The notes under the pieces are model-generated. The model saw nothing but the letters and a program-made list of their open reading frames with translations. It was not told the origin of the DNA and did no database searches. A DNA stretch of 64,000 bases from an uncultured bacterium. Its GTDB lineage: Bacteria; Bacteroidota; Rhodothermia; Balneolales; DATFMH01. Below, piece after piece: positions 4,171 through 57,820 of the stretch (its first letter is position 1; the number at the start of each line of letters is the position of its first letter). The position numbers and the translations under genes are program-made. The stretch covers positions 92,714 to 156,713 of the forward strand of contig CAWBCD010000021.1 of NCBI GenBank assembly GCA_963787205.1, read 5' to 3'.

Positions 4171-4812
4171 ATGAAAAAAAGCATCTTGCTGATGTTGGTG
4201 GCCGGACTCATTATATCAGCCTGCAGCAGTCCTCAAAAGGATGAAAGCAATCCAAAAACAGAAACTGTCAGCCAAAAAACGGATAGTTCGAATCAGAAGT
4301 CAGATAATCACAGACCCACAAAGGGACCAGTAAAGGTGTCTTTCAATACACCCACAATAAAGGATTACGGTGCTGAACATTATTTCCCGGATGCGGCTGT
4401 TCAACCTGATCCTAAAATGAATTACAAGGTTGTTTTCCTGATTATTCACAATGATGCTAAGGCAGAACATAATGAGGGACTTGATCATATAGCCCGGTTA
4501 ATCAATTTGCTGCATGATGCCGGGGTAAAACCGAATCATATTAATATAGTCGGTGTTTTGACAGGTCCGGCTACAGCCGTTGCAATGGCCGACAGCACAT
4601 ACAAGAAAATGTATACTGTGCCTAATCCCAATGATAGCCTTATGACAGAATTGACAAGAGTCGGCCATGTGAAACTGTATGTTTGCGCACAGGCGCTGTC
4701 ATTCATGGGATATGGCCCGGCTTACCTGAATCCAAACGTTAAAAGGGCCCTCTCGGCGTTAACCACTGTTACGACGTATGAGCTTAAAGGGTATGCTTTG
4801 ATGCAGTTTTAG
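4171..4812 (+). CDS. DsrE/DsrF-like family lipoprotein
   Basis: 213 aa with lipobox LIISAC and a low-complexity linker. The core (YKVVFLIIHND...IVGVLTGPA...LYVCAQAL...ELKGYALMQF) resembles the DsrE-like family from memory. Confidence 0.55.
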   Translation: MKKSILLMLVAGLIISACSSPQKDESNPKTETVSQKTDSSNQKSDNHRPTKGPVKVSFNTPTIKDYGAEHYFPDAAVQPDPKMNYKVVFLIIHNDAKAEHNEGLDHIARLINLLHDAGVKPNHINIVGVLTGPATAVAMADSTYKKMYTVPNPNDSLMTELTRVGHVKLYVCAQALSFMGYGPAYLNPNVKRALSALTTVTTYELKGYALMQF

Positions 4813-5101
4813 TGGGGAATGTATAAAACTGTCATTGGGAGGAATCCCTTTAGGATGACGTGACAATCTCGTCATCAATTGGAAACGCATAATACAGAGG
4901 CATGAATAGATCGTTTCTCGCTGAAACGAGATTGCCGCGGTGTCTTCTGACTTTTGCCATAGAATCCCGCAAGAGATAGGGAACCCCCATATATCGTATA
5001 AAAGCATTTTCACAGTGAAGCCACCTCGCAATGACAATACTTTTTACTGGTGCTACAAAGAAATGTAGTCTTATCTGATTCTAACAATTTAGTTGGCAGG
5101 A

Positions 5102-6460
5102 TCAACTTCCTGCCACAGAATGTTTTCGACGATTCCTTTTAAAAAGGAGAAAAGCCGGGATGCCTGCCAATACAGTCAGTAAGGCAAAGGATGATTCAGC
5201 CGGCCTCTCAAAAAAAGCAAGCAACAGAATGAGAGTACCAGTGATTGCATAGACAATGGGGGGCACCGCTGATCCTAAATGTTCATGCTTTACTTTTCGG
5301 AGTTTGAATACCCCGAGGACTGCCAGGATCGGGAAAATTCCGAGTGAAAATCCCATGTAGGTCAGGATCTGATCGAAAGTGCCCGAAAGGACCATGATGA
5401 TGGAAAGACCACTCTGCAGGAGGATAGCTTTTGACGGAACATTATTGGCCGGATTAACATTAGAAACGAACCTGAAGAAATAGCCATCCTTTGCCATGGA
5501 ATAATAGACACGCGGACCGAGAATGATAAAGGCGCTTAGTGAGGAGAACAGTGCAAAAGAGATCAACAGAGAGAAAACCGTCTCCATTGAGCGTCCGAAC
5601 AGGGTGCCCACAGCCAGTCCCCCGATTGAAATAACGCCGCTCATATTTTGGGGTGCCACTGCATAAATGAATAACAGGTTCAAAAGAAAATAGAGCAGAA
5701 TTACACTGCCGGTTCCAATCAGCAGGGATAAAGGGATGTTTTTTGATGGATCCCGGATCTCGGATCCGATATATGTGGAGGCATTCCATCCGCTGTAAGC
5801 AAACATGATCCACATAAGTGATAATCCAATCGTTTTCCAGCCGCCGAAGTCATAAGTATACGATCCGCCCGATGTCAGGTGGTTTATATCACCATCACCC
5901 CAGGCAAAACCGATGGCGATCAGGCCGACGATCAGAGCTACTTTTAATACGGTGAGGTAGTTCTGAACCTTTGCTCCGAATTCGATGCCACGAAGGTGGA
6001 TGGCTGTGAATAACAGAATTGCGAGGAGAGCGAGTCCTTTTTTAATTGTAACCGGCGACAGAAACGGAACCGGGTTCTCCAGTACGATGATGGCAGGAAA
6101 AGCACGTACAAAATATTCGCTGAACCCAATGGCCGATGCAGCAATTGGAGCAGAGAAGCCAACGATGAATGAAATCCATCCGCTAAGAAAACCGATCATC
6201 GGATGATAGAGGCGGGATAGAAAGAGATATTCCCCGCCGGCATGAGGCATGGCAACCCCCAGCCTGCTATATGCGAATGCACCGCAGAAAGCAATAACTC
6301 CACCGGCAATCCAAAGAAAAATCATGATCATGGGATTGCGGAGATCAGCCATCAATAATCCGGAAGTCGTGAAGATCCCGGCACCAATCATATTTGCAAT
6401 GACGATATTAGTGACCGGGAACAGTCCGAGTCTCCGTTCCAATTGCACATCGGTTGCCAT
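5102..6460 (-). CDS. APC-superfamily amino acid permease
   Basis: 452 aa with about 12 predicted TM helices and a typical N-terminal motif (IANMIGAGIFTTSG). Confidence 0.85.
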   Translation of the reverse strand: MATDVQLERRLGLFPVTNIVIANMIGAGIFTTSGLLMADLRNPMIMIFLWIAGGVIAFCGAFAYSRLGVAMPHAGGEYLFLSRLYHPMIGFLSGWISFIVGFSAPIAASAIGFSEYFVRAFPAIIVLENPVPFLSPVTIKKGLALLAILLFTAIHLRGIEFGAKVQNYLTVLKVALIVGLIAIGFAWGDGDINHLTSGGSYTYDFGGWKTIGLSLMWIMFAYSGWNASTYIGSEIRDPSKNIPLSLLIGTGSVILLYFLLNLLFIYAVAPQNMSGVISIGGLAVGTLFGRSMETVFSLLISFALFSSLSAFIILGPRVYYSMAKDGYFFRFVSNVNPANNVPSKAILLQSGLSIIMVLSGTFDQILTYMGFSLGIFPILAVLGVFKLRKVKHEHLGSAVPPIVYAITGTLILLLAFFERPAESSFALLTVLAGIPAFLLFKRNRRKHSVAGS

Positions 6461-6475
6461 TTTCAGAGTCCAAAG

Positions 6476-7138
6476 CTATTCCGATTTTTTGTAACTGATG
6501 GATACCCCGGCTCCCGATTCATCTACGGTTGTTTGGTAATTGGGAAGTTTCAGAACATATCTCAGAAATTCCTGTGTGCCGCCAAAGCCGTAGTTGTTAT
6601 GAATATTGTGGACGGTGAAGCACCCGCCGACAACCAGCTTCGGATCCAGCGCTGTGAAATATTTTGTCGACCAGCCTTTATCAGCATCATGGAAAACGAA
6701 GTCGATGGGTCCGTCAAGTTTGGGGACCAATTCATGGGCGTCAGCCAGCCGCGCATCGACGTAATCGGAAAGACCTGCTTCCCTGAAATTCTTTACTGCT
6801 TCATTATGCCGGGATTCATCAATCTCGATGGTTGTAAGTTTACCTCCGGTCTTGCTGAGTGCCCACGCTATCCAAATACCCGATCGCCCGGTAGACGTGC
6901 CGATCTCGAGGGCATTCTTGTAGCCATTTTTGAGGATAATGTCGTATAACAATTTACCATCCGATTCCGGGACATTCATATCACGCCATTGGTTGCGATG
7001 ACTTTTTAAAAATTTCTCAACACGGGTGTCGAGTTCTTTGTTTTCTTTCATTTGTTGAGCCAGCGCGGGTGTGGAATATGTGGCGACTATCATTGAAAAA
7101 GAAATGAATAGCAGAAAAAGATAGGTGAAGGGTTTCAT
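6476..7138 (-). CDS. Class I SAM-dependent O-methyltransferase (family-3/caffeoyl-CoA-OMT-like) with N-terminal signal peptide
   Basis: 220 aa. Signal-like N-terminus MKPFTYLFLLFISFSMIVATYSTPALAQ. SAM-binding motif ALEIGTSTGRSG and FHDADK. Confidence 0.75.
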   Translation of the reverse strand: MKPFTYLFLLFISFSMIVATYSTPALAQQMKENKELDTRVEKFLKSHRNQWRDMNVPESDGKLLYDIILKNGYKNALEIGTSTGRSGIWIAWALSKTGGKLTTIEIDESRHNEAVKNFREAGLSDYVDARLADAHELVPKLDGPIDFVFHDADKGWSTKYFTALDPKLVVGGCFTVHNIHNNYGFGGTQEFLRYVLKLPNYQTTVDESGAGVSISYKKSE

Positions 7139-9556: not shown

Positions 9557-10003
9557 TTATGAAGCCAGAGAGGCTACACGCCGGAATGTGTTAAAAAGTA
9601 CTTTTACTTTTCCCGAAAGATTTTGTAATTCTTTATCGGCCACTTCATCACCTTCGAGCAAGCGGCTGAATCCGGTGATTTTTTGCTCTGCCATTGATGG
9701 TGTGATCTTTCTGAATCCCATTTTCCAGTCAGGAAAATCCCGCGTGTCAGAATACTCGGCCAGCAGACGGATTATGTTGGTGTGTCTCTTGTCCTTTTTA
9801 ACCACTTGAAATAGGGATTCCACCTCTTCTCTTGGTCCTTCAAGTAATTGAATAAAATTACCTCCCGAATAGAGCAATACGCCAGTGACACCCCTCCTTT
9901 TGTTATTATTTATAGATTCCTCCAGAATGGTAAGCAGCTCATGCTCATTGAATGATTCGGTTTCTGAACTCAGGTATATCAACTTGTAAATCTTGTTATC
10001 CAT
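9557..10003 (-). CDS. Stand-alone BLUF (blue-light FAD) sensor protein
   Basis: 148 aa. YKLIYLSS...RRGVTGVLLYSGGNFIQLLEGPREEVESLFQVVKKDKRH is the canonical BLUF core. Confidence 0.85.
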   Translation of the reverse strand: MDNKIYKLIYLSSETESFNEHELLTILEESINNNKRRGVTGVLLYSGGNFIQLLEGPREEVESLFQVVKKDKRHTNIIRLLAEYSDTRDFPDWKMGFRKITPSMAEQKITGFSRLLEGDEVADKELQNLSGKVKVLFNTFRRVASLAS

Positions 10004-10230: not shown

Positions 10231-12138
10231 CTAATCTTCCTGGAAATCTTCGTAGTCGGTGAGTGTCTTTGGCGGGATGGCGACCCGCAAGGCATTGGCT
10301 ACGGCAAAGACATCGATTATCTCTTGTGCGACGGCACCGGCAACCGGTGGCAGCATGCCGACAGCGGCGAAGATCATCCCGACGAGGCTCAAAGCCATGC
10401 CACCTACGGCACTTTGCAAGGCGATGGTGCGCATCCGGCGTCCGATATGCATGAGTTCATCCACACGCTGCAGGGAGCTGTCGAGGATCACGGCCCCGGC
10501 GGCTTCTGTGATGATATCGCTGGCCTGTCCAAATGCAATTCCGACAGTTGCCGCTGTGAGGGCTGGGGCGTCGTTAATGCCATCACCCAGGAAAACCGTA
10601 TTGGCCTGTGCCGTTTCTTTTCGCACCAGTGCCAGTTTCTCTTCCGGGCTTTGCCCCGCGTAAACCTCTTTGATGCCAACCTTTTCCGCCAGGTATTTTA
10701 CTTCCGATTCCCGGTCTCCGGATATAAGAAGGATCCGCTCAAAACGGTGAAGTTTCTTCAGGTGACCAATAAACGGGGACCCTTCGGTCCGGGGTTCATC
10801 ACGGAATTGAAAAGTAGCAGCATAACGATCATCTATTAAGATCACGCACTCCATGCCACCTGATAGTGGTGGTATTTTTGAAGCAAATTCGGGTTGGATC
10901 GAAGTGAGTTTTTTGCGGCTCGTGATACGGAGGGATTGTCCTTTAACAATTCCCTGTAACCCTTCTCCGGGATGTTCACTTACCTGCCCTGCTTCAGGAA
11001 AATCAAGCTTTTCGTGCCGTGCTGCTTCAATGATGGCCGACGATAGGGGGTGCCTCGAGTAACGTTCCAGGCTGGCAACAAGCGAGAGAACTTCTTTCCG
11101 ATCGAACTCGTCTTCTATATGAATTTCCGTCAGTTTGGGCTGACCGTATGTCAGAGTACCGGTCTTGTCGAACATGGCCACACGGCATGTTTCTATCTTC
11201 TCGAGTACCGCCGGATCCTTGATGATGATGCCCCGCCGGGCAGCAAGGGATATGGATCCGATAATCGACACAGGTATAGCAATTAACAGCGGACAGGGTG
11301 TGGCAACTACAAGCACGGCAAGGAAAAGGACCGGGTTTCCACTTATCACCCACGCCAGAATAGCGATAGCGACAGCCACTGGCGTGTAAACGGCACCGAG
11401 TTGATCACCTAATCGTCGCATATGCGGCCGCTGCTGTTCCGACTCGCGCATGACCTGCATGATCTTCGCATAGCGAGAGTCGACGGGAAGCTTATCGGCC
11501 CGTATGGTGAGTGCAGTCTCTCCATTGATGGCACCTGAAAGAACCGTGGAACCTGGTGCTTTGGAGAGTACGTAGGGTTCACCCGTAAGGTATGATTCAT
11601 CCATGGATCCATGACCGTCAACAATAGTGCCGTCAACCGGGCAAATTTCGTGCGGAAAGACCACCAGCAAGTCTCCGATGACGACATCATCAAGCTGGAG
11701 ATCTTTTACATCACCGTTTTGCTTGCGATGTGCTTCCGATGGCATACGTTTGGCCAGTGCCTGAAGCACCGACGAGGCATTTTGCACAGCATATGCTTCA
11801 AGCGTTTCCCCCCCGGATAACATCAGGACGACCAGCGTTCCAGCAAGGTATTCCCCCAATAGCACCGCAGTCACAATGGAAATACCTGCCAGCAGATCTG
11901 AGCTGAATTCAAAACGAATGATATTCCGGGCGAGATCAAAAACAAGAGGTATCCCACCTAAAACGAGTGCTGCGAATAATGGGATATCGTACATGGGATG
12001 CCCAAAAACCAGCCAGTCGGTATGAAACAGATAACGCATCAAGAGATGTGAAACGATAGCCAGGATTGCTATGGCGGCTATATATCCCTCCTTAGGATAT
12101 CGTCTCAGGAAACTGTAAGAACCTTCTGGCTGGATCAT
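10231..12138 (-). CDS. P1B-type heavy-metal-translocating ATPase with TPC(P) transmembrane motif
   Basis: 635 aa with DKTGTLT, TGEP and GDGINDAP. The metal-binding helix reads [12 protein letters not shown], where CPC is replaced by TPC. There is no N-terminal CxxC/HMA domain. Confidence 0.9.
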
Positions 12139-29745: not shown

Positions 29746-32055
29746 TCACGGCCACTCCTGTGCAGGGATGGTTTCGTCTCTGCCCCATCTTTTATTCGGC
29801 TTGCGACCCATCCTAAATACAATCTTGCCGCCGTTTTTCAACTGATCGAAGGGCAGGAAGGGACTGTTCCATTTCTTGCCGTTCAGCACAACGGACTGGA
29901 TGTATATATTTTTAGGAGACTGGTTTTCAGCGATCATCGTAAAATCCTTGCCGTCTGAAAGGTGCATGACAGCCTTCTTAACCAGCGGACTCCCAATCAC
30001 ATAATAACTGCTTCCAGGACAGACCGGGTAAAATCCCATCGTATTAAATATATACCAAGCCGACATCTGCCCGCAGTCGTCATTGCCTTTCAGCGAGTTG
30101 GGTTTATCCCCGTACATAAGTTTCACGATCTGATGGATGCGCATTTGTGTTTTCCACGGCTGACCGGCATAGCAATATAAGAACGCGATGTGATGACTCG
30201 GTTCGTTGCCATGAGCATATTCCCCTATCAAACCTGTAATATCGAGTGTGTCCCCGTTTTGAACGGTGCCCGGACGCATGGTAAACAGGGAATCAAGTTT
30301 TTCAGTAAACCGTTTCTTCCCTCCCATAAGCTTGATCAGGCCCGGTACATCCTGCGGTACGAACCAACTGTACTGCCAGCTTGTGCCTTCGGTGAAATCG
30401 CCGCCTTCCACATATTGATGCGGATGAAATGGGGTATGCCAGTGGCCATGGGAGTCCTTGCCGCGCATCAACCCGTACGTCGGATCGAAGAGATTTTTGT
30501 AGCTTTCGGCACGTTTCATGAAGTACTGGTAGTCCTGCTGCTTGCCGAGAGCTTTGGCCATCTGTGCGATGCACCAGTCGTCGTACGCGTATTCCAGCGT
30601 TTTGGATACCGATTCGTTTTCCTCGTCGTCCGGAACGTATCCAAGTTTGGCAAAAGTCGATGCATGGTCATAGTTCGGGTTCATCGCCGTCTTCTTGATG
30701 GCTTCATAAGCTCGTTCCGGGTCAAATCCCTTAACGCCTTTCATATAAGCATCAACGATGACGGGCACGGCGTGATAACCGATCATGCACCATGTTTCAT
30801 TGCCCTGAAGCGACCATACCGGCAGCATGTGCTCCACGCTCTGATCATAGTGGGCAAGCATGGAGTTGACCATGTCTCCGTCCCGTTTCGACTGAACGAG
30901 TGCAAGGAGCGGGTGCTCGGCGCGGAACGTGTCCCAAAGTGAAAAAATCGTGTATTTGGTAAACCCTTTGGCTTTGTGTATTTCCCAATCGAGACCCCGG
31001 TACTTCCCGTTGACGTCTTCATAAAGATTGGGCGTCAGGAAAGAGTGGTAGAGCGAGGTGTAGAAGGTCTCCATCTGGTCTTTCGTGCCGTCAATCCGAA
31101 TCTTATCGAGTTGCTTTTCCCATTTATCACGGGTCTCGCGGCGGACGCGGCTGAAGTTCCAGTCTGGTATCTCCGCATCCAGGTTTTGCATGGCATCGGA
31201 CTCACTGACCGCCGATATACCCACCTTGATCATAATTTGTTCATTGGCGTGTGTCTTAAATTGGGCCAGGAATTTCAGGTCCTTACCCGACGCCTCGCGC
31301 GCACTCCGGAACCGGTAGGTATTGTAGATGACGGGCTTCCCATCCATCATGATGCGGAAGTGTTCAAACGGTTTGGAATAGCGGGCGGCAAAATAGAGAT
31401 ACCGTTCCTTTGCCCAGCCATGAACAAGATGAAAACCGGTTATGGTCGAATCGTTAAGTACACGGATATGCGACCAGATTACATTCCAGCGCAGAACGTG
31501 TTTGAGATCAGTCAGCACAAACGCACTGTCGGAGGCCGGGAACGTAAAACGCATCAATCCTGCGCGTTCAGTGCAGGTCAGCTCTACATTGATGCCCGAA
31601 TCCTGCAACCTGACCTGGTAATAACCGGGAGATGCCTGTTCATCATTATGAGAATAACGCTGGCGATGGCCCGAATCGGGATCCTGCTTCGTTCCTTCAG
31701 CGAGCAACGGACGCCCGATGTTTGGCATAAACAGGAAATCACCCAGATCGGGAATGCCCGTACCTGAAAGGTGGGTCATGCTGAAACCGATGATCGATTT
31801 ATCAGAGTATTCATATCCTGAAGCAGTGGCCCACAGCGAGTCATCCGTATCGGGACCAATCTGTACCATCCCAAAAGGGGCCGATGGTCCCGGGAACGTA
31901 TTGCCGTCACCCTCTGTGCCAACGAATGGATTTACAAAGTCGACTAGTGAAGTATCCTTATCAGCCGGTTGTTGTTTCTTTTTAGGTATCCCGGCAACAA
32001 GAAGGGAAGGGATGCATATCAATACAAAAAGCAGGGGAACTCGTTTATTGACCAT
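29746..32055 (-). CDS. GH92-family alpha-mannosidase, secreted
   Basis: 769 aa with a signal peptide. The N-terminal motif NPFVGTEGDGNTFPGPSAPFGMVQIGPDT is diagnostic of GH92. Confidence 0.9.
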   Translation of the reverse strand: MVNKRVPLLFVLICIPSLLVAGIPKKKQQPADKDTSLVDFVNPFVGTEGDGNTFPGPSAPFGMVQIGPDTDDSLWATASGYEYSDKSIIGFSMTHLSGTGIPDLGDFLFMPNIGRPLLAEGTKQDPDSGHRQRYSHNDEQASPGYYQVRLQDSGINVELTCTERAGLMRFTFPASDSAFVLTDLKHVLRWNVIWSHIRVLNDSTITGFHLVHGWAKERYLYFAARYSKPFEHFRIMMDGKPVIYNTYRFRSAREASGKDLKFLAQFKTHANEQIMIKVGISAVSESDAMQNLDAEIPDWNFSRVRRETRDKWEKQLDKIRIDGTKDQMETFYTSLYHSFLTPNLYEDVNGKYRGLDWEIHKAKGFTKYTIFSLWDTFRAEHPLLALVQSKRDGDMVNSMLAHYDQSVEHMLPVWSLQGNETWCMIGYHAVPVIVDAYMKGVKGFDPERAYEAIKKTAMNPNYDHASTFAKLGYVPDDEENESVSKTLEYAYDDWCIAQMAKALGKQQDYQYFMKRAESYKNLFDPTYGLMRGKDSHGHWHTPFHPHQYVEGGDFTEGTSWQYSWFVPQDVPGLIKLMGGKKRFTEKLDSLFTMRPGTVQNGDTLDITGLIGEYAHGNEPSHHIAFLYCYAGQPWKTQMRIHQIVKLMYGDKPNSLKGNDDCGQMSAWYIFNTMGFYPVCPGSSYYVIGSPLVKKAVMHLSDGKDFTMIAENQSPKNIYIQSVVLNGKKWNSPFLPFDQLKNGGKIVFRMGRKPNKRWGRDETIPAQEWP

Positions 32056-32186
32056 CGGTATATCAATTTAAATGAATGGGACGTGACAGAATAACAACTA
32101 GCTGTGAAAAAAACAGTAAATTTATGACTACCTCATCAATAGATGAGTGTTATAGTTAAGAATAGCTTTGTTAACTAGTAATGCTG

Positions 32187-32213
32187 TTGGTCCAGGTTAC
32201 AAACCTGAACCGG
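32187..32213. repeat. REP-like palindromic element, copy 3 (opposite loop orientation)
   Basis: TTGGTCCAGGTT-aca-AACCTGAACCGG, with one arm mismatch relative to copy 2. Confidence 0.65.
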
Positions 32214-32371
32214 GAGGTGATGCTATTTAGAGGGGGGACGTGTATGTGTGCTTGATTCCATATTATTATTACGCTGATATCATTTATTCCATGTTACTCA
32301 ATAAATTCGGGATAATTATTGAAGTCACGGATCTGAGCTGTTTTTAAAATATCGCGAAAATCAATTCCAAT

Positions 32372-32386
32372 CTGGTTCAAGTTTGC
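32372..32386. repeat. REP-like half-site, copy 4, about 87 nt upstream of the transposase pseudogene
   Basis: CTGGTTCAAGTTTGC matches the left arm of copy 1. It is followed by a small CCCCG/CGGGG hairpin. Confidence 0.45.
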
Positions 32387-32472
32387 CCCGGTAAATCGGG
32401 GGACCATAGTACCTCCTATTTCAAAAATTACTACATTCAGTAAAGCCAATATTCATCAATCGAGAGTAACAA

Positions 32473-33093
32473 ATGAGCCGGAAGTACAAATTCTGTGATT
32501 CTACGCGCCCCTATTTTGTCAGCTATGCAACCGTTCATTGGATTGATCTGTTCACAATAAGTTTCACAAATTAACCATGGAGGTGGATTGATACTTGCCG
32601 GGAATGATAAATGGGAAGCTAGCTGCCAACTCCAAGCACTACGGATGTCATCCTGAACCCTGATGGAGTGTAACTCATTAGCAATGACGTTTTTTGGGTG
32701 AAGGATCTCGTTCGCAGCCGGGAACTATCGGTGCAACTGATCCCATCGTTTAGGCCTGCAGACCAGATCCTACTTCCTCCGGCAAGCCGGAGAAAATCAG
32801 GATGACATCTTTGGGTTTGGGGTTTGCCATAGGGAGCAAGGAAAGAGTGGATTTTGAGGATGTTCAGCAGTGCAGGTTAAAAGAACTCCAATAACAAAAC
32901 CTGGCAGGTGTGGCAGCAACATAACCATCCTGTTGAATTAGCTTACAATAAAATGATCGAACAACGCCTGAATTACCTTCATATGAATCCTGTGAAAGCT
33001 GGTTATGTCGACCGTCCTGAGGATTGGCTCTATAGCAGCACCAAACAAGATGCAGGTTTACCCGGGATGCTCAAGCTTGAGCTGATTGAGTGA
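32473..33093 (+). pseudogene. Degraded Y1 (HUH) transposase gene of the RAYT/IS200-like 'MSRKYKF' family
   Basis: The frame is conserved end to end but carries about 7 in-frame stops. The N-terminus MSRKYKFCDSTRPYFVSYATVHWIDLFT and C-terminus WQQHNHPVELAYNKMIEQRLNYLHMNPVKAGYVDRPEDWLYSS match the family as I remember it. The HUH position reads TTDVIL (H to D and H to I). An extra ~70 nt is present at 32763-32826. Confidence 0.75.
32763..32826. repeat. Hairpin-containing element, locus A (homologous to 53989-54065)
   Basis: cCAGATCCTACttcctccggc-aa-gccggagaaAAATCAGGATGACATCTTTgggtttg. The flanks are shared with locus B, and the stem differs from B by paired substitutions. Confidence 0.7.
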
Positions 33094-33104
33094 TTTGATG
33101 GCGT

Positions 33105-33118
33105 GTACTGGTCCAAGT
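33105..33118. repeat. REP-like half-site, copy 5, 12 nt downstream of the transposase pseudogene
   Basis: GTACTGGTCCAAGT matches the arm of copy 2 (ACTGGTCCAGGT) with one mismatch. Confidence 0.45.
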
Positions 33119-33241
33119 ATGATAATCATAGATCAATGATATTGGTCTATTGCTATGCAATAGCTTAGATAATTGTAAGGTATGTAAGTCTTGTCTGTCA
33201 TTGTATTAGTCCCTATTATCGTTATATATAGGGAGCGAATT

Positions 33242-34426
33242 ATGGGAGAGAATGTTGATATATCCGCATTGCGCATCCGGCGTGATGCCAATCCGCCTGA
33301 AAGAAATAACCGCAGGAACCGTGGATGGATAATCATTGCCGTTTTTCTCGTCATGGCTGTTGCGGCTGGATATATTTTCGTAGTCACGGGCGCCGCTGAC
33401 CCCGAGGTTGGTGTGTCGACGGTTATCCGCTCAGGCAATAACAAGGCGCAAAGCATGCTGACTGCCAGCGGTTATGTGGTGGCACAACGTGAGGCGGCCG
33501 TCGCATCAAAAGGAACGGGACGACTCGTATATCTTGGCGTTGAAGAGGGCGATCGGGTGACCCATGGGCAGATTATTGCACGGCTGGAGGATTCCGACGT
33601 TCTTGCTTCCCTGGCCAGTGCCCGGGCCAATCTGTCTGTTGTACGTGCTGATTCGGCTGAAGCAGCATTGAACCTGCAGCGCCAACAAGCGCTGCAAGAC
33701 CAAAATCTCACTTCCCAGGCAAATCTCGATGCGGCCAAAACGGCATATCAAAAGGTTATTGCAAATATTGGTCTGGCAGCCGCAAATATTCGGGAAGCGG
33801 AAGTGGCCGTTGAAAATACGGTAATCCGTGCTCCTTTCGACGGGACGGTATTGACCAAAAATGCCGATGTTGGCGAGATTGTGGCTCCTTTTGCCGCATC
33901 GGCGAACTCCCGCGGCGCAGTGGTAACCATAGCCGACATGTCATCGCTGGAAGTGGAAGCCGATGTCTCCGAATCCAATATAACACTCGTGAAACTGAAC
34001 CAGCCATGTGAAATCGGGCTGGATGCCTATCCTGATCAGCGTTACCGGGGTTACGTGAAGAAAATCGTGCCCACCGCCGATCGCAGCAAGGCTACCGTGA
34101 TGGTCAAAGTCGCATTTGACTCGCTCGACAGCAGGGTTCTCCCCGAGATGAGCACGAAGGTTCAGTTCCTGTCTAAAGCAAGACCAGCGAATGAATACAG
34201 CGATGCAAGGATGCTCACCGTTCCCACCACCTCTATTTTGAAACGTGATCGGAGAACCTATGTACTGCTTGTCAACAGCGGAGTGATCGAGGAGCGTGAG
34301 GTCGAGTTAGGTCAGTCGTTACGTGACAGGACGGTGGTCCAGGAAGGATTGAAGCAGGGTGATCAGGTTGTGACCGAGCCGACGGTAAATCTGAAAGCAG
34401 GGACAAAAATAAGAGTGAAACGGTAA
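33242..34426 (+). CDS. HlyD/MacA-type periplasmic adaptor (membrane fusion) protein
   Basis: The track ORF begins at TTG 33191. ATG 33242 (MGENVD) follows AGGGAG. It has an N-terminal TM anchor, a coiled-coil hairpin region and a beta-barrel C-terminus. Confidence 0.85.
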   Translation: MGENVDISALRIRRDANPPERNNRRNRGWIIIAVFLVMAVAAGYIFVVTGAADPEVGVSTVIRSGNNKAQSMLTASGYVVAQREAAVASKGTGRLVYLGVEEGDRVTHGQIIARLEDSDVLASLASARANLSVVRADSAEAALNLQRQQALQDQNLTSQANLDAAKTAYQKVIANIGLAAANIREAEVAVENTVIRAPFDGTVLTKNADVGEIVAPFAASANSRGAVVTIADMSSLEVEADVSESNITLVKLNQPCEIGLDAYPDQRYRGYVKKIVPTADRSKATVMVKVAFDSLDSRVLPEMSTKVQFLSKARPANEYSDARMLTVPTTSILKRDRRTYVLLVNSGVIEEREVELGQSLRDRTVVQEGLKQGDQVVTEPTVNLKAGTKIRVKR

Positions 34427-53772: not shown

Positions 53773-53876
53773 GAATATTCCTCAAATTTTTGCCCAACGG
53801 TCCAGCGAATACACTGCGCCGGTTTGAAATATAAGTTAGTAGAATGAGCGGCAATTACAAGAGCCATTCTGAGGCA

Positions 53877-54210
53877 CTAAAGACATTTAGTCTCAATGAA
53901 AAGATGGTTTGGGTTGATCCCGAGGAGTCGTTGCGTTTGTATTAAGAAACTATTTTTGAACTTGAAAAGATTGCTGCTGAGTGCAAAACGAGATCCTACT
54001 TTTTCCCGCCACGGCGGGAAAAAATCAGGATGACATCTTTTGTTTGTGTTTGGTATGGGGTTGGTCCTCAATGCTCAGGCAAATCTCCAGGCTTGGGTCG
54101 TAGTCGATCTCCACTTTGAGTTGCTGTGAATCAGTTGTACAACACCTCCTTATACATATGTCCGGGTAAACAGATAAATCCACAGTACGGCGGTTGACTT
54201 TAGGTTTCAT
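53877..54210 (-). pseudogene. Second, heavily degraded Y1-transposase remnant (same family as 32473-33093)
   Basis: Minus-strand frames give, in family order: MKPK...DICIRR...SLEI (61-aa ORF 54025-54210), then KDVILIFSRRGGKK*DLV at the HUH position, then FKFKNSFLI and GINPN. Nucleotide strings GATGTCATCCTGA and GATCTCGTT are shared with the plus-strand copy. Confidence 0.4.
53989..54065. repeat. Hairpin-containing element, locus B (homologous to 32763-32826)
   Basis: cGAGATCCTACtttttcccgcc-ac-ggcgggaaaAAATCAGGATGACATCTTTtgtttg, with an 11-bp perfect stem. Confidence 0.7.
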
Positions 54211-57721: not shown

Positions 57722-57741
57722 TTAAGTAATCATTTACTTAC
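57722..57741. promoter_or_regulatory. Palindromic box copy 1 (tTAAGTAA-TCAT-TTACTTAC), 18 nt upstream of the FmdE start codon
   Basis: The 19-nt core TAAGTAATCATTTACTTAC is identical to the copies at 58870-58888 and 59230-59248. Confidence 0.6.
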
Positions 57742-57820
57742 AATAGTGGATAAATTTTTTTACTTATCCTCTTTTACGATACGTTCAACAAAATGCCCTG
57801 TACGGGTATATATTTTCAGA

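Follow-up and report, generated by a model that had tools for sequence, protein, structure and literature searches.

A dispersed palindromic repeat element inside the remains of a transposase gene in a Balneolales bacterium

The DNA analyzed here is a 64,000-nt stretch from an uncultured bacterium of the order Balneolales, below called the window. Coordinates refer to the window unless they are preceded by an L-number, which denotes a comparison locus or contig. Between 32473 and 33093 it holds the remains of a gene encoding a REP-associated tyrosine transposase (RAYT), REP standing for repetitive extragenic palindrome. Alignment to related DNA indicates that the middle of this dead gene, 32562-32826, is very probably a copy of a dispersed repeat, accompanied by half a REP and a spacer, and not diverged transposase sequence. 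The repeat, here named E, is a non-coding palindromic element of about 200 nt that is dispersed and present in multiple copies in Balneolales. It is made of two hairpin units in inverted orientation, with a palindromic spacer between them. One copy (copy A) lies within the gene at locus A, and another (copy B) is found at locus B, 53863-54052. The presence of E in the gene is the product of a local rearrangement, not of an insertion of gene-derived DNA.

The Transposase Pseudogene and Its Intact Relative

A single reading frame runs through 32473-33093 if eight internal stops are disregarded, and yields a conceptual product of 206 aa; members of the family have 182 aa. The product has 56 homologues, nearly all of them 181-185 aa long and containing PF01797. 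A Pfam search with the conceptual product itself gave no match; the NCBIfam model REP_Tyr_transpos matches its C-terminal part (residues 136-188, E = 7e-12). The closest homologue is P0001, an intact protein of 182 aa encoded on contig L001 (L001:10001-10549) in the same gene neighborhood.

The window and L001 align at 86-92% DNA identity in four stretches: upstream of the gene, over its first 89 nt, over its last 267 nt, and in the downstream DNA. No such alignment is possible for the middle of the pseudogene. Its counterpart is found in the DNA downstream of the intact gene, where L001:10596-10841 is about 87-90% identical to window 32602-32844. The synteny blocks thus pair L001:9930-10089 with 32404-32561 (91.9% over 160 nt), L001:10283-10574 with 32827-33118 (86.4%), L001:10596-10841 with 32602-32844, and L001:10903-11050 with 33118-33265, the identity being 84-92% across all four.

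Missing from the window are 193 nt of the gene (L001:10090-10282), which code for the HUH motif NHVHLI. In their place stand 265 nt (32562-32826), which lengthens the gene by a net 72 nt (24 codons). An earlier reading of the window from its sequence alone (the original prediction) had estimated an excess of about 24 codons, in agreement with the 206 versus 182 aa, but had confined it to 32763-32826. It had also taken the string DVIL for the degenerate HUH position of the gene. Because the same sequence sits outside the intact gene in L001, however, the segment 32562-32826 appears not to be gene-derived; the bases encoding DVIL belong to this stretch, and the HUH region itself is deleted. Intact family members do not have the segment. 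A tblastn search of the window with P0001 gave a match only at 32473-33090, and no transposase remnant at locus B or elsewhere in the window. The possibility that the DNA between two inverted 13-mers of the segment (described below) had simply been turned around was rejected after the reverse complement of 32657-32796 had been read by eye in three frames; it showed no similarity to the family.

What remains of the RAYT-type Y1 transposase gene is a 5' fragment on the plus strand, 32473-32561, covering codons 1 to about 30 (with its upstream flank 91.9% identical to L001:9930-10089, the start of the P0001 gene), and a 3' fragment, 32827-33093 (+), which has a nonsense codon of its own at 32878-32880 and, with 25 nt past the stop, is 86.4% identical to L001:10283-10574. 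The 5' fragment is followed by 32562-32625 (+), aligning with L001:10574-10617 and consisting of the right half of the REP hairpin that flanks the transposase gene (TTTCACAAATTAACCATGG, 32562-32580) and the spacer found ahead of E in L001. The left half of the same hairpin (CTGGTCCAAGT, 33108-33118, +) is joined straight to downstream intergenic DNA. The whole hairpin, CTGGTCGAAGTTACAAACTTGAACCAG, is found at L001 ~10562-10588, while window 33118 continues at L001:10903.

Anatomy of Element E

A unit of E, read on its own strand, has the form 5'-(CCAAACACAAn)GA-TGTC-ATCCT-G-AT-(variable 8-11 bp stem with 4-nt loop, or long module)-GT-AGGAT-CTCGT-3'. It thus contains a TGTC or CGTC tag, a 5-bp foot beginning A-T, T-A, a conserved T.G wobble, and a stem that is free in sequence as long as it is paired. 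The tag is TGTC in 50/57 units and CGTC in 3/57; for about 23 of the units it was prescribed by the search pattern. The first pair of the foot is A-U in 61/61 units and the second is U-A in 58/61, and the loop motif is mostly nAAG. The tail after the foot is CTCGT, with TCGTT, TCGTG, or TCGTC in 35/52 units, and it pairs with the tail of the partner unit to form the base of a central arm. The entire element is arranged as (CCAAACACAAn)GATGTCATCCTGA, a first variable module, (G/T)(A/T)AGGATCTCGT, a centre of ~40 nt, ACGAGATCCTAC, a second variable hairpin, and ATCAGGATGACATC(nTTGTGTTTGG). Both ends carry a terminal inverted repeat of ~24 nt with the consensus CCAAACACAAnGATGTCATCCTGA (33 dimers).

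Copy A is a complete inverted dimer, 32626-32823, running from CCAACTCCAAGCACTACGGATGTCATCCTGA to TCAGGATGACATCTTTGGGTTTGGGG; its fold has z = -5.8, and it matches L001:10596-10841 at about 89.5%. Its left unit (32635-32715, minus strand) is of the long type and scores 31.2 bits (E = 8e-6) with R1, a covariance model of the E unit. It has the tag TGTC, the foot ATCCT/AGGAT, and a module at 32657-32701 closed by ACCC/GGGT, a stem that covaries among copies of the long type (ACCC/GGGT, GGCCC/GGGCC, GCCCC/GGGGC, ACCCC/GGGGT). The central palindromic arm, 32702-32771 (AGGATCTCGT ... ACCAGATCCT), lies between the units, and its 10-bp base stem is kept in 18 copies. The right unit (32758-32818, plus strand; 76.4 bits, E = 2e-18) consists of GATCCTAC, a variable hairpin at 32774-32795 (TTCCTCCGGCAAGCCGGAGAAA), and ATCAGGATGACATC at 32796-32809. 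Two inverted matches that had been noticed in this region are real and find their place in the element: TCAGGATGACATC at 32797-32809 is the exact reverse complement of 32644-32656, and AGATCCT at 32765-32771 is complementary to AGGATCT at 32702-32708, the left-hand partner of each match being part of the left unit.

In copy B (53863-54052) the left unit, ~53863-53932 (GCCATTCTGAGGC...GATCCCGAGGAGTCGTT), has degenerated and is similar to the left unit of L013, which is of the long type. The right unit of the copy, 53984-54046 (+), remains intact and has its hairpin at 54000-54023 and ATCAGGATGACATC at 54024-54037 (72.6 bits, E about 1e-17). R1 thus finds three units in the window, and at 76.4 and 72.6 bits chance matching is excluded for the two copies. 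Orthologues of copy B are present in L024, L040, and L046; the right unit is kept in all three, while the left part is lost in two. Locus B was also recovered in the Logan contig L029, and a Logan contig is 99.97% identical across the locus. The homology between the two loci that the original prediction had pointed out holds over 32762-32826 and 53988-54052 (80.6% over 67 columns, blastn E = 2.8e-8), with the shared flanks GATCCTAC and ATCAGGATGACATCTTT (also GATCCTAC to ATCAGGATGACATC) enclosing near-perfect hairpins of differing sequence.

Two small open reading frames (ORFs) end in the termini of E. The ORF at 54025-54210 (-), 61 aa, overlaps an upstream 73-aa gene by ATGA and was predicted as a gene on the Logan contig; its end lies in the terminal repeat of copy B (...KQKMSS*, with the stop from ATGTCATCCTGA). 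The ORF at 32797-32928 (-) ends in the same way, indicating that E termini can create or extend small ORFs.

Covariation and the Conserved Fold

The variable hairpin is maintained by compensatory change, as had been predicted. When 23 copies are aligned, two-sided changes are seen at 9/9 stem pairs, and 92% of the cells are paired. The alignment contains 79 double-change cells, compared to 24 +/- 3.6 after shuffling, and 0/500 shuffles gave a number as high. Pairing falls to 37-52% when the 3' partner is shifted by one to three columns. The same is found for 61 distinct units, with 186 double-change cells against 59 +/- 6 (0/500 as high), the fraction of paired cells being 92-94% across the two sets. 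Between copies A and B at least three positions were originally thought to have changed on both arms; the 23-copy alignment shows two clear two-sided changes and one that is one-sided.

The foot covaries as well. Nine units have exchanged ATCCT/AGGAT for ATTCT/AGAAT, with both changes within the same unit. Local (within-unit) and global (cross-element) pairing of the feet can be told apart in 14 of 31 dimers, and all 14 favor the local pairing. The conserved fold thus consists of three adjacent hairpins (left unit, central arm, right unit), and not of the large snap-back structure proposed originally. By energy minimization alone, the favored structure is a four-way junction that the terminal repeats close (z = -5.8 and -7.3). 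RNAalifold supports only the 10-bp base stem of the central arm, the interior of which is a conserved but imperfect palindrome. Outside GATGTC, cognate flanks pair at 6.5 of 14 positions and non-cognate flanks at 7.0 of 14. Since cognate flanks pair no better, the sequence beyond GATGTC is a conserved consensus and does not reflect copy-specific covariation.

Distribution of E Copies

Further copies, named in the original prediction as its own test, were sought with the pattern GATCCTAC-N(12-40)-ATCAGGATGACATC. It was found at 22 loci among the GTDB species representatives, 20 of them in two genomes, the metagenome-assembled genome (MAG) MFD05684.bin.1.137 and Balneolales SMAG_U9247, and at 23 loci in JGI metagenomes. 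With R1, the window, L001, and the GTDB loci together yielded 63 unit matches (E up to 1), and the JGI loci another 55 (E up to 0.01); the total of 118 includes strains sampled twice, as some JGI loci come from the same strains as the MAGs. The matches form 36 inverted dimers, with spacers in the classes 22-24, 40-47, and 91-97 nt and one outlier of 72 nt, and 22 are unpaired units.

E also occurs in arrays. In L039 three full elements ~60 nt apart occupy 1-665, L032 has a cluster of eight units at 4586-7081, and L004 contains an exact 344-nt tandem duplication (1718-2314) with two units per repeat. The stem sequences vary widely within one genome; only subfamilies recur, and no near-identical population surrounds a master sequence.

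At the orthologous sites L014 6181-6345 and L022 3666-3809, where the flanking genes are ~86% identical, the E blocks are kept while the stems of the first module are entirely different and the spacer is 42 versus 24 nt. This suggests module exchange between E copies, or replacement at the same site. A distant E-like dimer at L054 3541-3716, 2.8 kb from a RAYT gene, has the feet ACCCT/AGGGT (left) and ATCTT/AAGAT (right). Here the compensation is again within the unit, which hints at a wider superfamily of repeats of the type GTCAy-foot-hairpin-foot. A full-text literature search with the sequence strings returned unrelated polymerase chain reaction primers only, and the family appears to be previously undescribed.

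The Rearrangement at Locus A

The order in L001 is the 5' part of the gene, its middle, its 3' part with the left half of the REP, the right half of the REP with the spacer and E, a 61-nt stretch, and downstream DNA. Compared with this, the block of REP right half and E and the block of gene 3' part and REP left half are swapped in the window, while the middle of the gene (193 nt) and the 61 nt are gone. The first junction brings L001:10089, in the 5' part of the gene, next to 10574, in the right half of the REP, with a microhomology of AAG (GAAG is found at L001:10086 and 10570). The second junction, from E to the 3' part of the gene, lies at a 12-nt direct repeat, GAGAGCAGGAAA (L001:10830 and 10289). 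The third, from the left half of the REP to the downstream DNA, joins L001:10573 to 10903. Two of the three junctions thus go back to a single break in the transposase's own REP, situated in the loop at the top of the left arm.

Judged by these alignments, and with the intact gene taken as ancestral, the window arrangement reads as if the segment bounded by the 12-nt repeats had been circularly permuted, the opening lying at the REP loop. REP- or RAYT-mediated strand exchange by way of a circular or duplicated intermediate could be the cause, and microhomology-mediated template switching at hairpins would fit equally well.

In L001, GAGAGCAGGAAA is found once within the intact gene (10289-10300) and once just past E (10830-10841), and the next 45 nt share ATTCTGA with the gene. 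E in L001 may thus itself precede a short remnant of the 3' part of a transposase gene. A loop break is also present in the REP upstream of the pseudogene (32371-32410), where CTGGTTCAAGTTTG runs into an unrelated small hairpin, CCCCGGTAAATCGGGGG, with ACCA behind it; the intact sequence in L001 is CTGGTTCAAGTTTGTAACTTGGACCA.

A bolder reading of the locus would be that both RAYT-flanking REPs, broken at their loops, are a natural record of RAYT-catalyzed cleavage and strand transfer via a circular intermediate, the transposase having destroyed its own gene, and that the E units are single-stranded DNA sites of another enzyme, folding on the tag strand as marked by the conserved T.G wobble. 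We regard this reading as rather unlikely.

The RAYT Family and Its Own REP

The transposase clade looks to have a cognate REP that is different from E. In nine loci (L001, L003, L026, L027, L028, L054, L055, L056, and L057) the RAYT gene is flanked on both sides, in inverted orientation, by a palindrome of the type (C)TGGCRCAAGT...ACTTGYGCCA(G). The palindrome family can be written (A)CTGGnnCAAGTTnnnAACTTGnnCCAG(T), with the arms GGCRCAAGT/ACTTGYGCC and no GTAG tag, and the nine loci that share it have only 55-70% protein identity. Examples are found at L001 ~9905-9930 and 10562-10588, L026 2885-2955 and 3590-3682, and L054 153-180 and 788-815.

R1 found no E unit in six RAYT loci (L003, L026, L027, L028, L054, L055), L001 being the exception. 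Conversely, no RAYT gene was seen near E in 45 loci, and no transposase gene near any E copy beyond those in L001 and the window. E is probably not a substrate of this transposase. The original prediction had suggested a REP-like hairpin recognized by a Y1 transposase; such a hairpin is still the best available analogy, while the RAYT family has its own, different REP. The GTAG noted earlier on the complementary strand belongs to an internal loop; in some units it lies 3' of the variable stem, and it varies (TAC, TTC, TAA); the conserved tag, TGTC/CGTC, is at the other end of the unit.

Strand Asymmetry and Proposed Recognition of the Unit

The imperfections in the stems are unevenly distributed between the strands. 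Counted on the strand of the model, there are 24 C.A or A.C and 7 G.T or T.G. The junction position beside the foot is C.A in nearly all short units, corresponding to T.G on the tag strand (5'-TGTC-ATCCT...). These counts argue, with moderate and not firm confidence, that each unit folds well on the tag strand only. As the units of a dimer are inverted, their good strands are opposite DNA strands, and a single transcript cannot satisfy both units. This favors folded single-stranded DNA over an RNA function.

Each unit would then act as a folded single strand, most likely of DNA. A trans-acting recombinase or transposase would read the conserved tag, foot, and tail and tolerate any stem that is paired, and copies that lose pairing would cease to be propagated or maintained, leading to the covariation observed. 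A similar mode of action has been proposed for CGTC-tagged REPs and for the dRS3 sites of Neisseria. Recognition of the unit as a folded single strand is put forward tentatively, as a mechanism that may well turn out otherwise. The explanation as a whole, in which E is a dispersed repeat copy and its units are recognized in this manner, is in our judgment somewhat probable.

Several points weigh against this explanation. The two conserved blocks of the first 23 copies were set by the search pattern, and their invariance there is by construction. Many copies share descent, and both the shuffle statistics and the 24-vs-7 asymmetry overstate independence. The different cognate REP in nine loci makes the RAYT family unlikely as the enzyme of E, and an all-against-all comparison of the ORFs in ~330 kb of E-bearing loci revealed only orthologous neighbors and one large paralogous family, with no recurring transposase or recombinase. 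No clean pair of a filled and an empty site was found: L004 versus L018 gives a half element instead of an empty site, synteny between L008 and window 47.1-47.6 kb is lost at the element, and all orthologues of locus B are filled. The mobility of E, its target choice, and its lack of target duplications are putative. E often abuts stop codons, which would fit an RNA role too. Finally, the rearrangement at locus A requires more than one simple event under any model, and its direction depends on the intact gene being ancestral.

Alternative Explanations

E could function mainly as RNA, either as an element in 3' untranslated regions or between cistrons that acts on mRNA stability or processing, or as a small-RNA precursor, in which case the covariation would stem from selection on the folding of the RNA. 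In Escherichia coli, REP sequences organized in bacterial interspersed mosaic elements (BIMEs) and ERIC sequences stabilize or process mRNA. Many E copies are found 3-16 nt past a stop codon or between genes on the same strand, the predicted folds are very stable (z = -5.8, -7.3), and one short copy has a sub-threshold match to the Wolbachia RNA WsnRNA46 via the terminal repeat CACAAAGgTGTCATCC. However, the wobbles of the two units of a dimer are on opposite strands, and any transcript will carry C.A mismatches in one of them. In addition, no promoter or intrinsic-terminator consensus was found, no Rfam family matched at threshold, and unpaired units and half elements persist. A predominantly RNA-based role is unlikely, although it deserves to be kept in mind.

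It is improbable that E is a conventional miniature inverted-repeat transposable element (MITE), moved by double-strand cut-and-paste by a DDE transposase that binds the ~24-nt terminal inverted repeats, with the hairpins being incidental. The conserved CCAAACACAAnGATGTCATCCTGA and the size and copy number would suit such an element, and a Wolbachia element has a similar terminus. Yet no target-site duplication is visible at the ends, and no insertion sequence with these ends was found in any locus. Incidental hairpins would not covary at 9/9 positions, and the unpaired units, the heterodimers, and the covariation at unit level point to the unit as the functional entity, and not to the element as a whole.

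The pairing could also be upheld by palindrome self-correction, a possibility named in the original prediction, in which mismatches in extruded hairpins are repaired off the other arm and no functional selection is needed. Indeed, stems differ sharply between orthologous copies, as in L014 and L022, and mismatches are rare (92-94% of cells paired). The strict conservation across species of the unpaired tag, the bulge, the loop motif, and the tail is left unexplained by such a process, however, and the conserved T.G wobble should have been erased by it. Self-correction is therefore improbable as a full account, but it can coexist with single-strand recognition of the units.

Repeats and hairpins are classic causes of misjoins and the arrangement at locus A is unusual, which might suggest an assembly chimera. 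An independent Logan contig (run ERR11523667) is, however, 100% identical over window 27246-33324, and together with the identity across locus B this makes an assembler-specific chimera unlikely. The 3' fragment has moreover acquired a nonsense mutation of its own, as expected of a long-dead gene. Misassembly is accordingly a very remote prospect.

The original proposal, that locus A contains an inverted copy of the HUH-coding segment of a transposase gene copy of which locus B is a remnant, is practically untenable: the 13-nt and 7-nt inverted matches are real and the translation stays in frame with faint family-like strings (DVILN, SNDVF), but the block 32602-32844, including GATGTCATCCTGA...AGGATCTCGT, lies outside the intact gene in L001, locus B is not a gene, the 13-mers are the terminal repeats of one palindromic element whose feet pair within units, these terminal blocks are found in dozens of intergenic copies, none of which has a transposase gene nearby, and the frame was kept by a one-in-three chance (+265, -193 = +72 nt).

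Relation to Known Repeat Systems

The closest known kinds of repeats are dimers of CGTC-tagged REPs and the dRS3/NIME repeats of Neisseria. The CGTC-tagged superfamily includes Neisseria dRS3 and Rickettsia RPE-4 and RPE-6 (Di Nocera, De Gregorio and Rocco 2013; PMC3733652). REPs of this kind carry a CGTC tag at one end, TGTC or CCTC also being allowed. Their stems begin with AT and differ in sequence, and the repeats mostly form dimers; they are found in Bacteroidetes, Chlorobi, Wolbachia, and Rickettsia, with no dedicated transposase (PMC3733652). E resembles them in its (C/T)GTC end tag, in the first pairs A-T and T-A, and in the 4-nt loops. It also occurs mostly as inverted dimers with spacers of 20-100 bp, shows the same stem heterogeneity, is intergenic and sometimes located in genes, and has no known dedicated transposase. 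While the CGTC-tagged REPs have just one stem, of 8-9 bp, and a 4-5 nt loop, the E unit is built in two tiers: a foot of 5 bp is followed by a bulge and a wobble, and then comes a second stem of 8-11 bp or a module of 35-45 nt. Its tail is CTCGT instead of a short unpaired CCA, its tags face outwards, its spacer is itself a conserved palindrome, and its hosts are Balneolales.

The dRS3 repeat, ATTCCC-N8-GGGAAT, has a fixed foot and a variable centre, is found in intergenic mosaic arrays, and serves as an integration site for a phage recombinase (PMC1797815). Like the NIME, in which dRS3 flanks RS elements, E combines a short inverted-repeat foot with a free centre (ATCCT...AGGAT versus ATTCCC-N8-GGGAAT) and forms intergenic arrays. 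The NIME foot has been proposed to be a recombinase or transposase site, and this has been shown for filamentous phage (PMC1797815). E differs in being a fixed dimer with a conserved spacer, while NIME are open-ended arrays with >100 spacer families, and no phage or recombinase was found together with E.

The similarities to REPIN-RAYT systems and E. coli BIMEs are that palindromic units form inverted doublets, that there are heterodimers of two unit types (cf. the Y and Z REPs of E. coli), that tens of copies are found per genome, that copies persist for long at orthologous sites, and that E is near a RAYT gene in L001 and the window. Unlike in REPIN-RAYT systems, there is no 5' GTAG tag and no near-identical population around a master, and the RAYT gene is flanked by another palindrome than E. 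The ends of IS200/IS605 elements are direct, same-strand hairpins with distinct left and right ends, while the units of E are inverted in 36/36 dimers and the well-folding strand differs between the units. Terminal inverted repeats are shared with DDE-type MITEs; a target-site duplication was not visible beside the E ends, and no transposase gene recurred among the E loci that were scanned. Integron attC sites were rejected upon reading the sequence, as RYYYAAC/GTTRRRY boxes, a cassette array, and an integrase are all lacking.

Rfam gave nothing at the gathering thresholds, and permissive scans of three copies yielded chance-level matches and the sub-threshold WsnRNA46 (RF02625). This small RNA of Wolbachia has nearly the same terminal inverted repeat as E (CACAAAGgTGTCATCCgaG ... 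GGATGACAcC), enclosing ~90-100 nt. The match, L022:3663-3817, covers the full length of the model at 23.7 bits (E = 0.01) against a gathering score of 65.3, with the termini alone matching, and the window copies gave no match to WsnRNA46. The likeness is a lead only. Taken together, E is a familiar kind of bacterial repeat, similar to REP dimers, of a seemingly undescribed family.

Neighboring Features of the Window

Compared to L001, the window contains an extra 3.6 kb (28807-32403) between a 195-aa gene and the transposase. A repeat search found a RAYT-type REP hairpin (CTGGTCCAGGTTACAAACCTGAACC) at 32186-32213, others at 28055-28082 and 29692-29720, and the broken one at 32371-32410. The GH92 gene at 29746-32055 is bracketed by inverted REPs (29695-29718 and 32188-32211) that are 96% complementary, and the region may be a REP-flanked gene insertion. 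An exact look-up of a 394-aa protein encoded downstream gave no record.

Three copies of TAAGTAATCATTTACTTAC, which is partly palindromic, are found within 1.5 kb at 57723-57760, 58870-58907, and 59230-59267. They may be an operator or a promoter-associated motif and seem unrelated to E.

Implications

The annotation of locus A is hereby corrected: what appeared to be a single dead transposase gene is two gene fragments split by a repeat element and half a REP. The E family is now defined, in a poorly studied order, by a usable model that includes the unit, the dimer, and the spacer classes. Left undefined, E would go on yielding spurious small ORFs (...KMSS*) and false calls of structured RNA.

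E is also a clean natural case of a repeat in which tag, foot, and wobble are fixed while the stem is free, and the strand and the features that are recognized can be tested in vitro. The adjacent REP-RAYT locus, with its breakpoints at the level of the loop, bears on how REP-type repeats are processed and spread. Should the RAYT-catalyzed reading be true, the locus would be an in vivo footprint of REP processing, and E would be a second class of palindromic repeats beside the REP-RAYT system.

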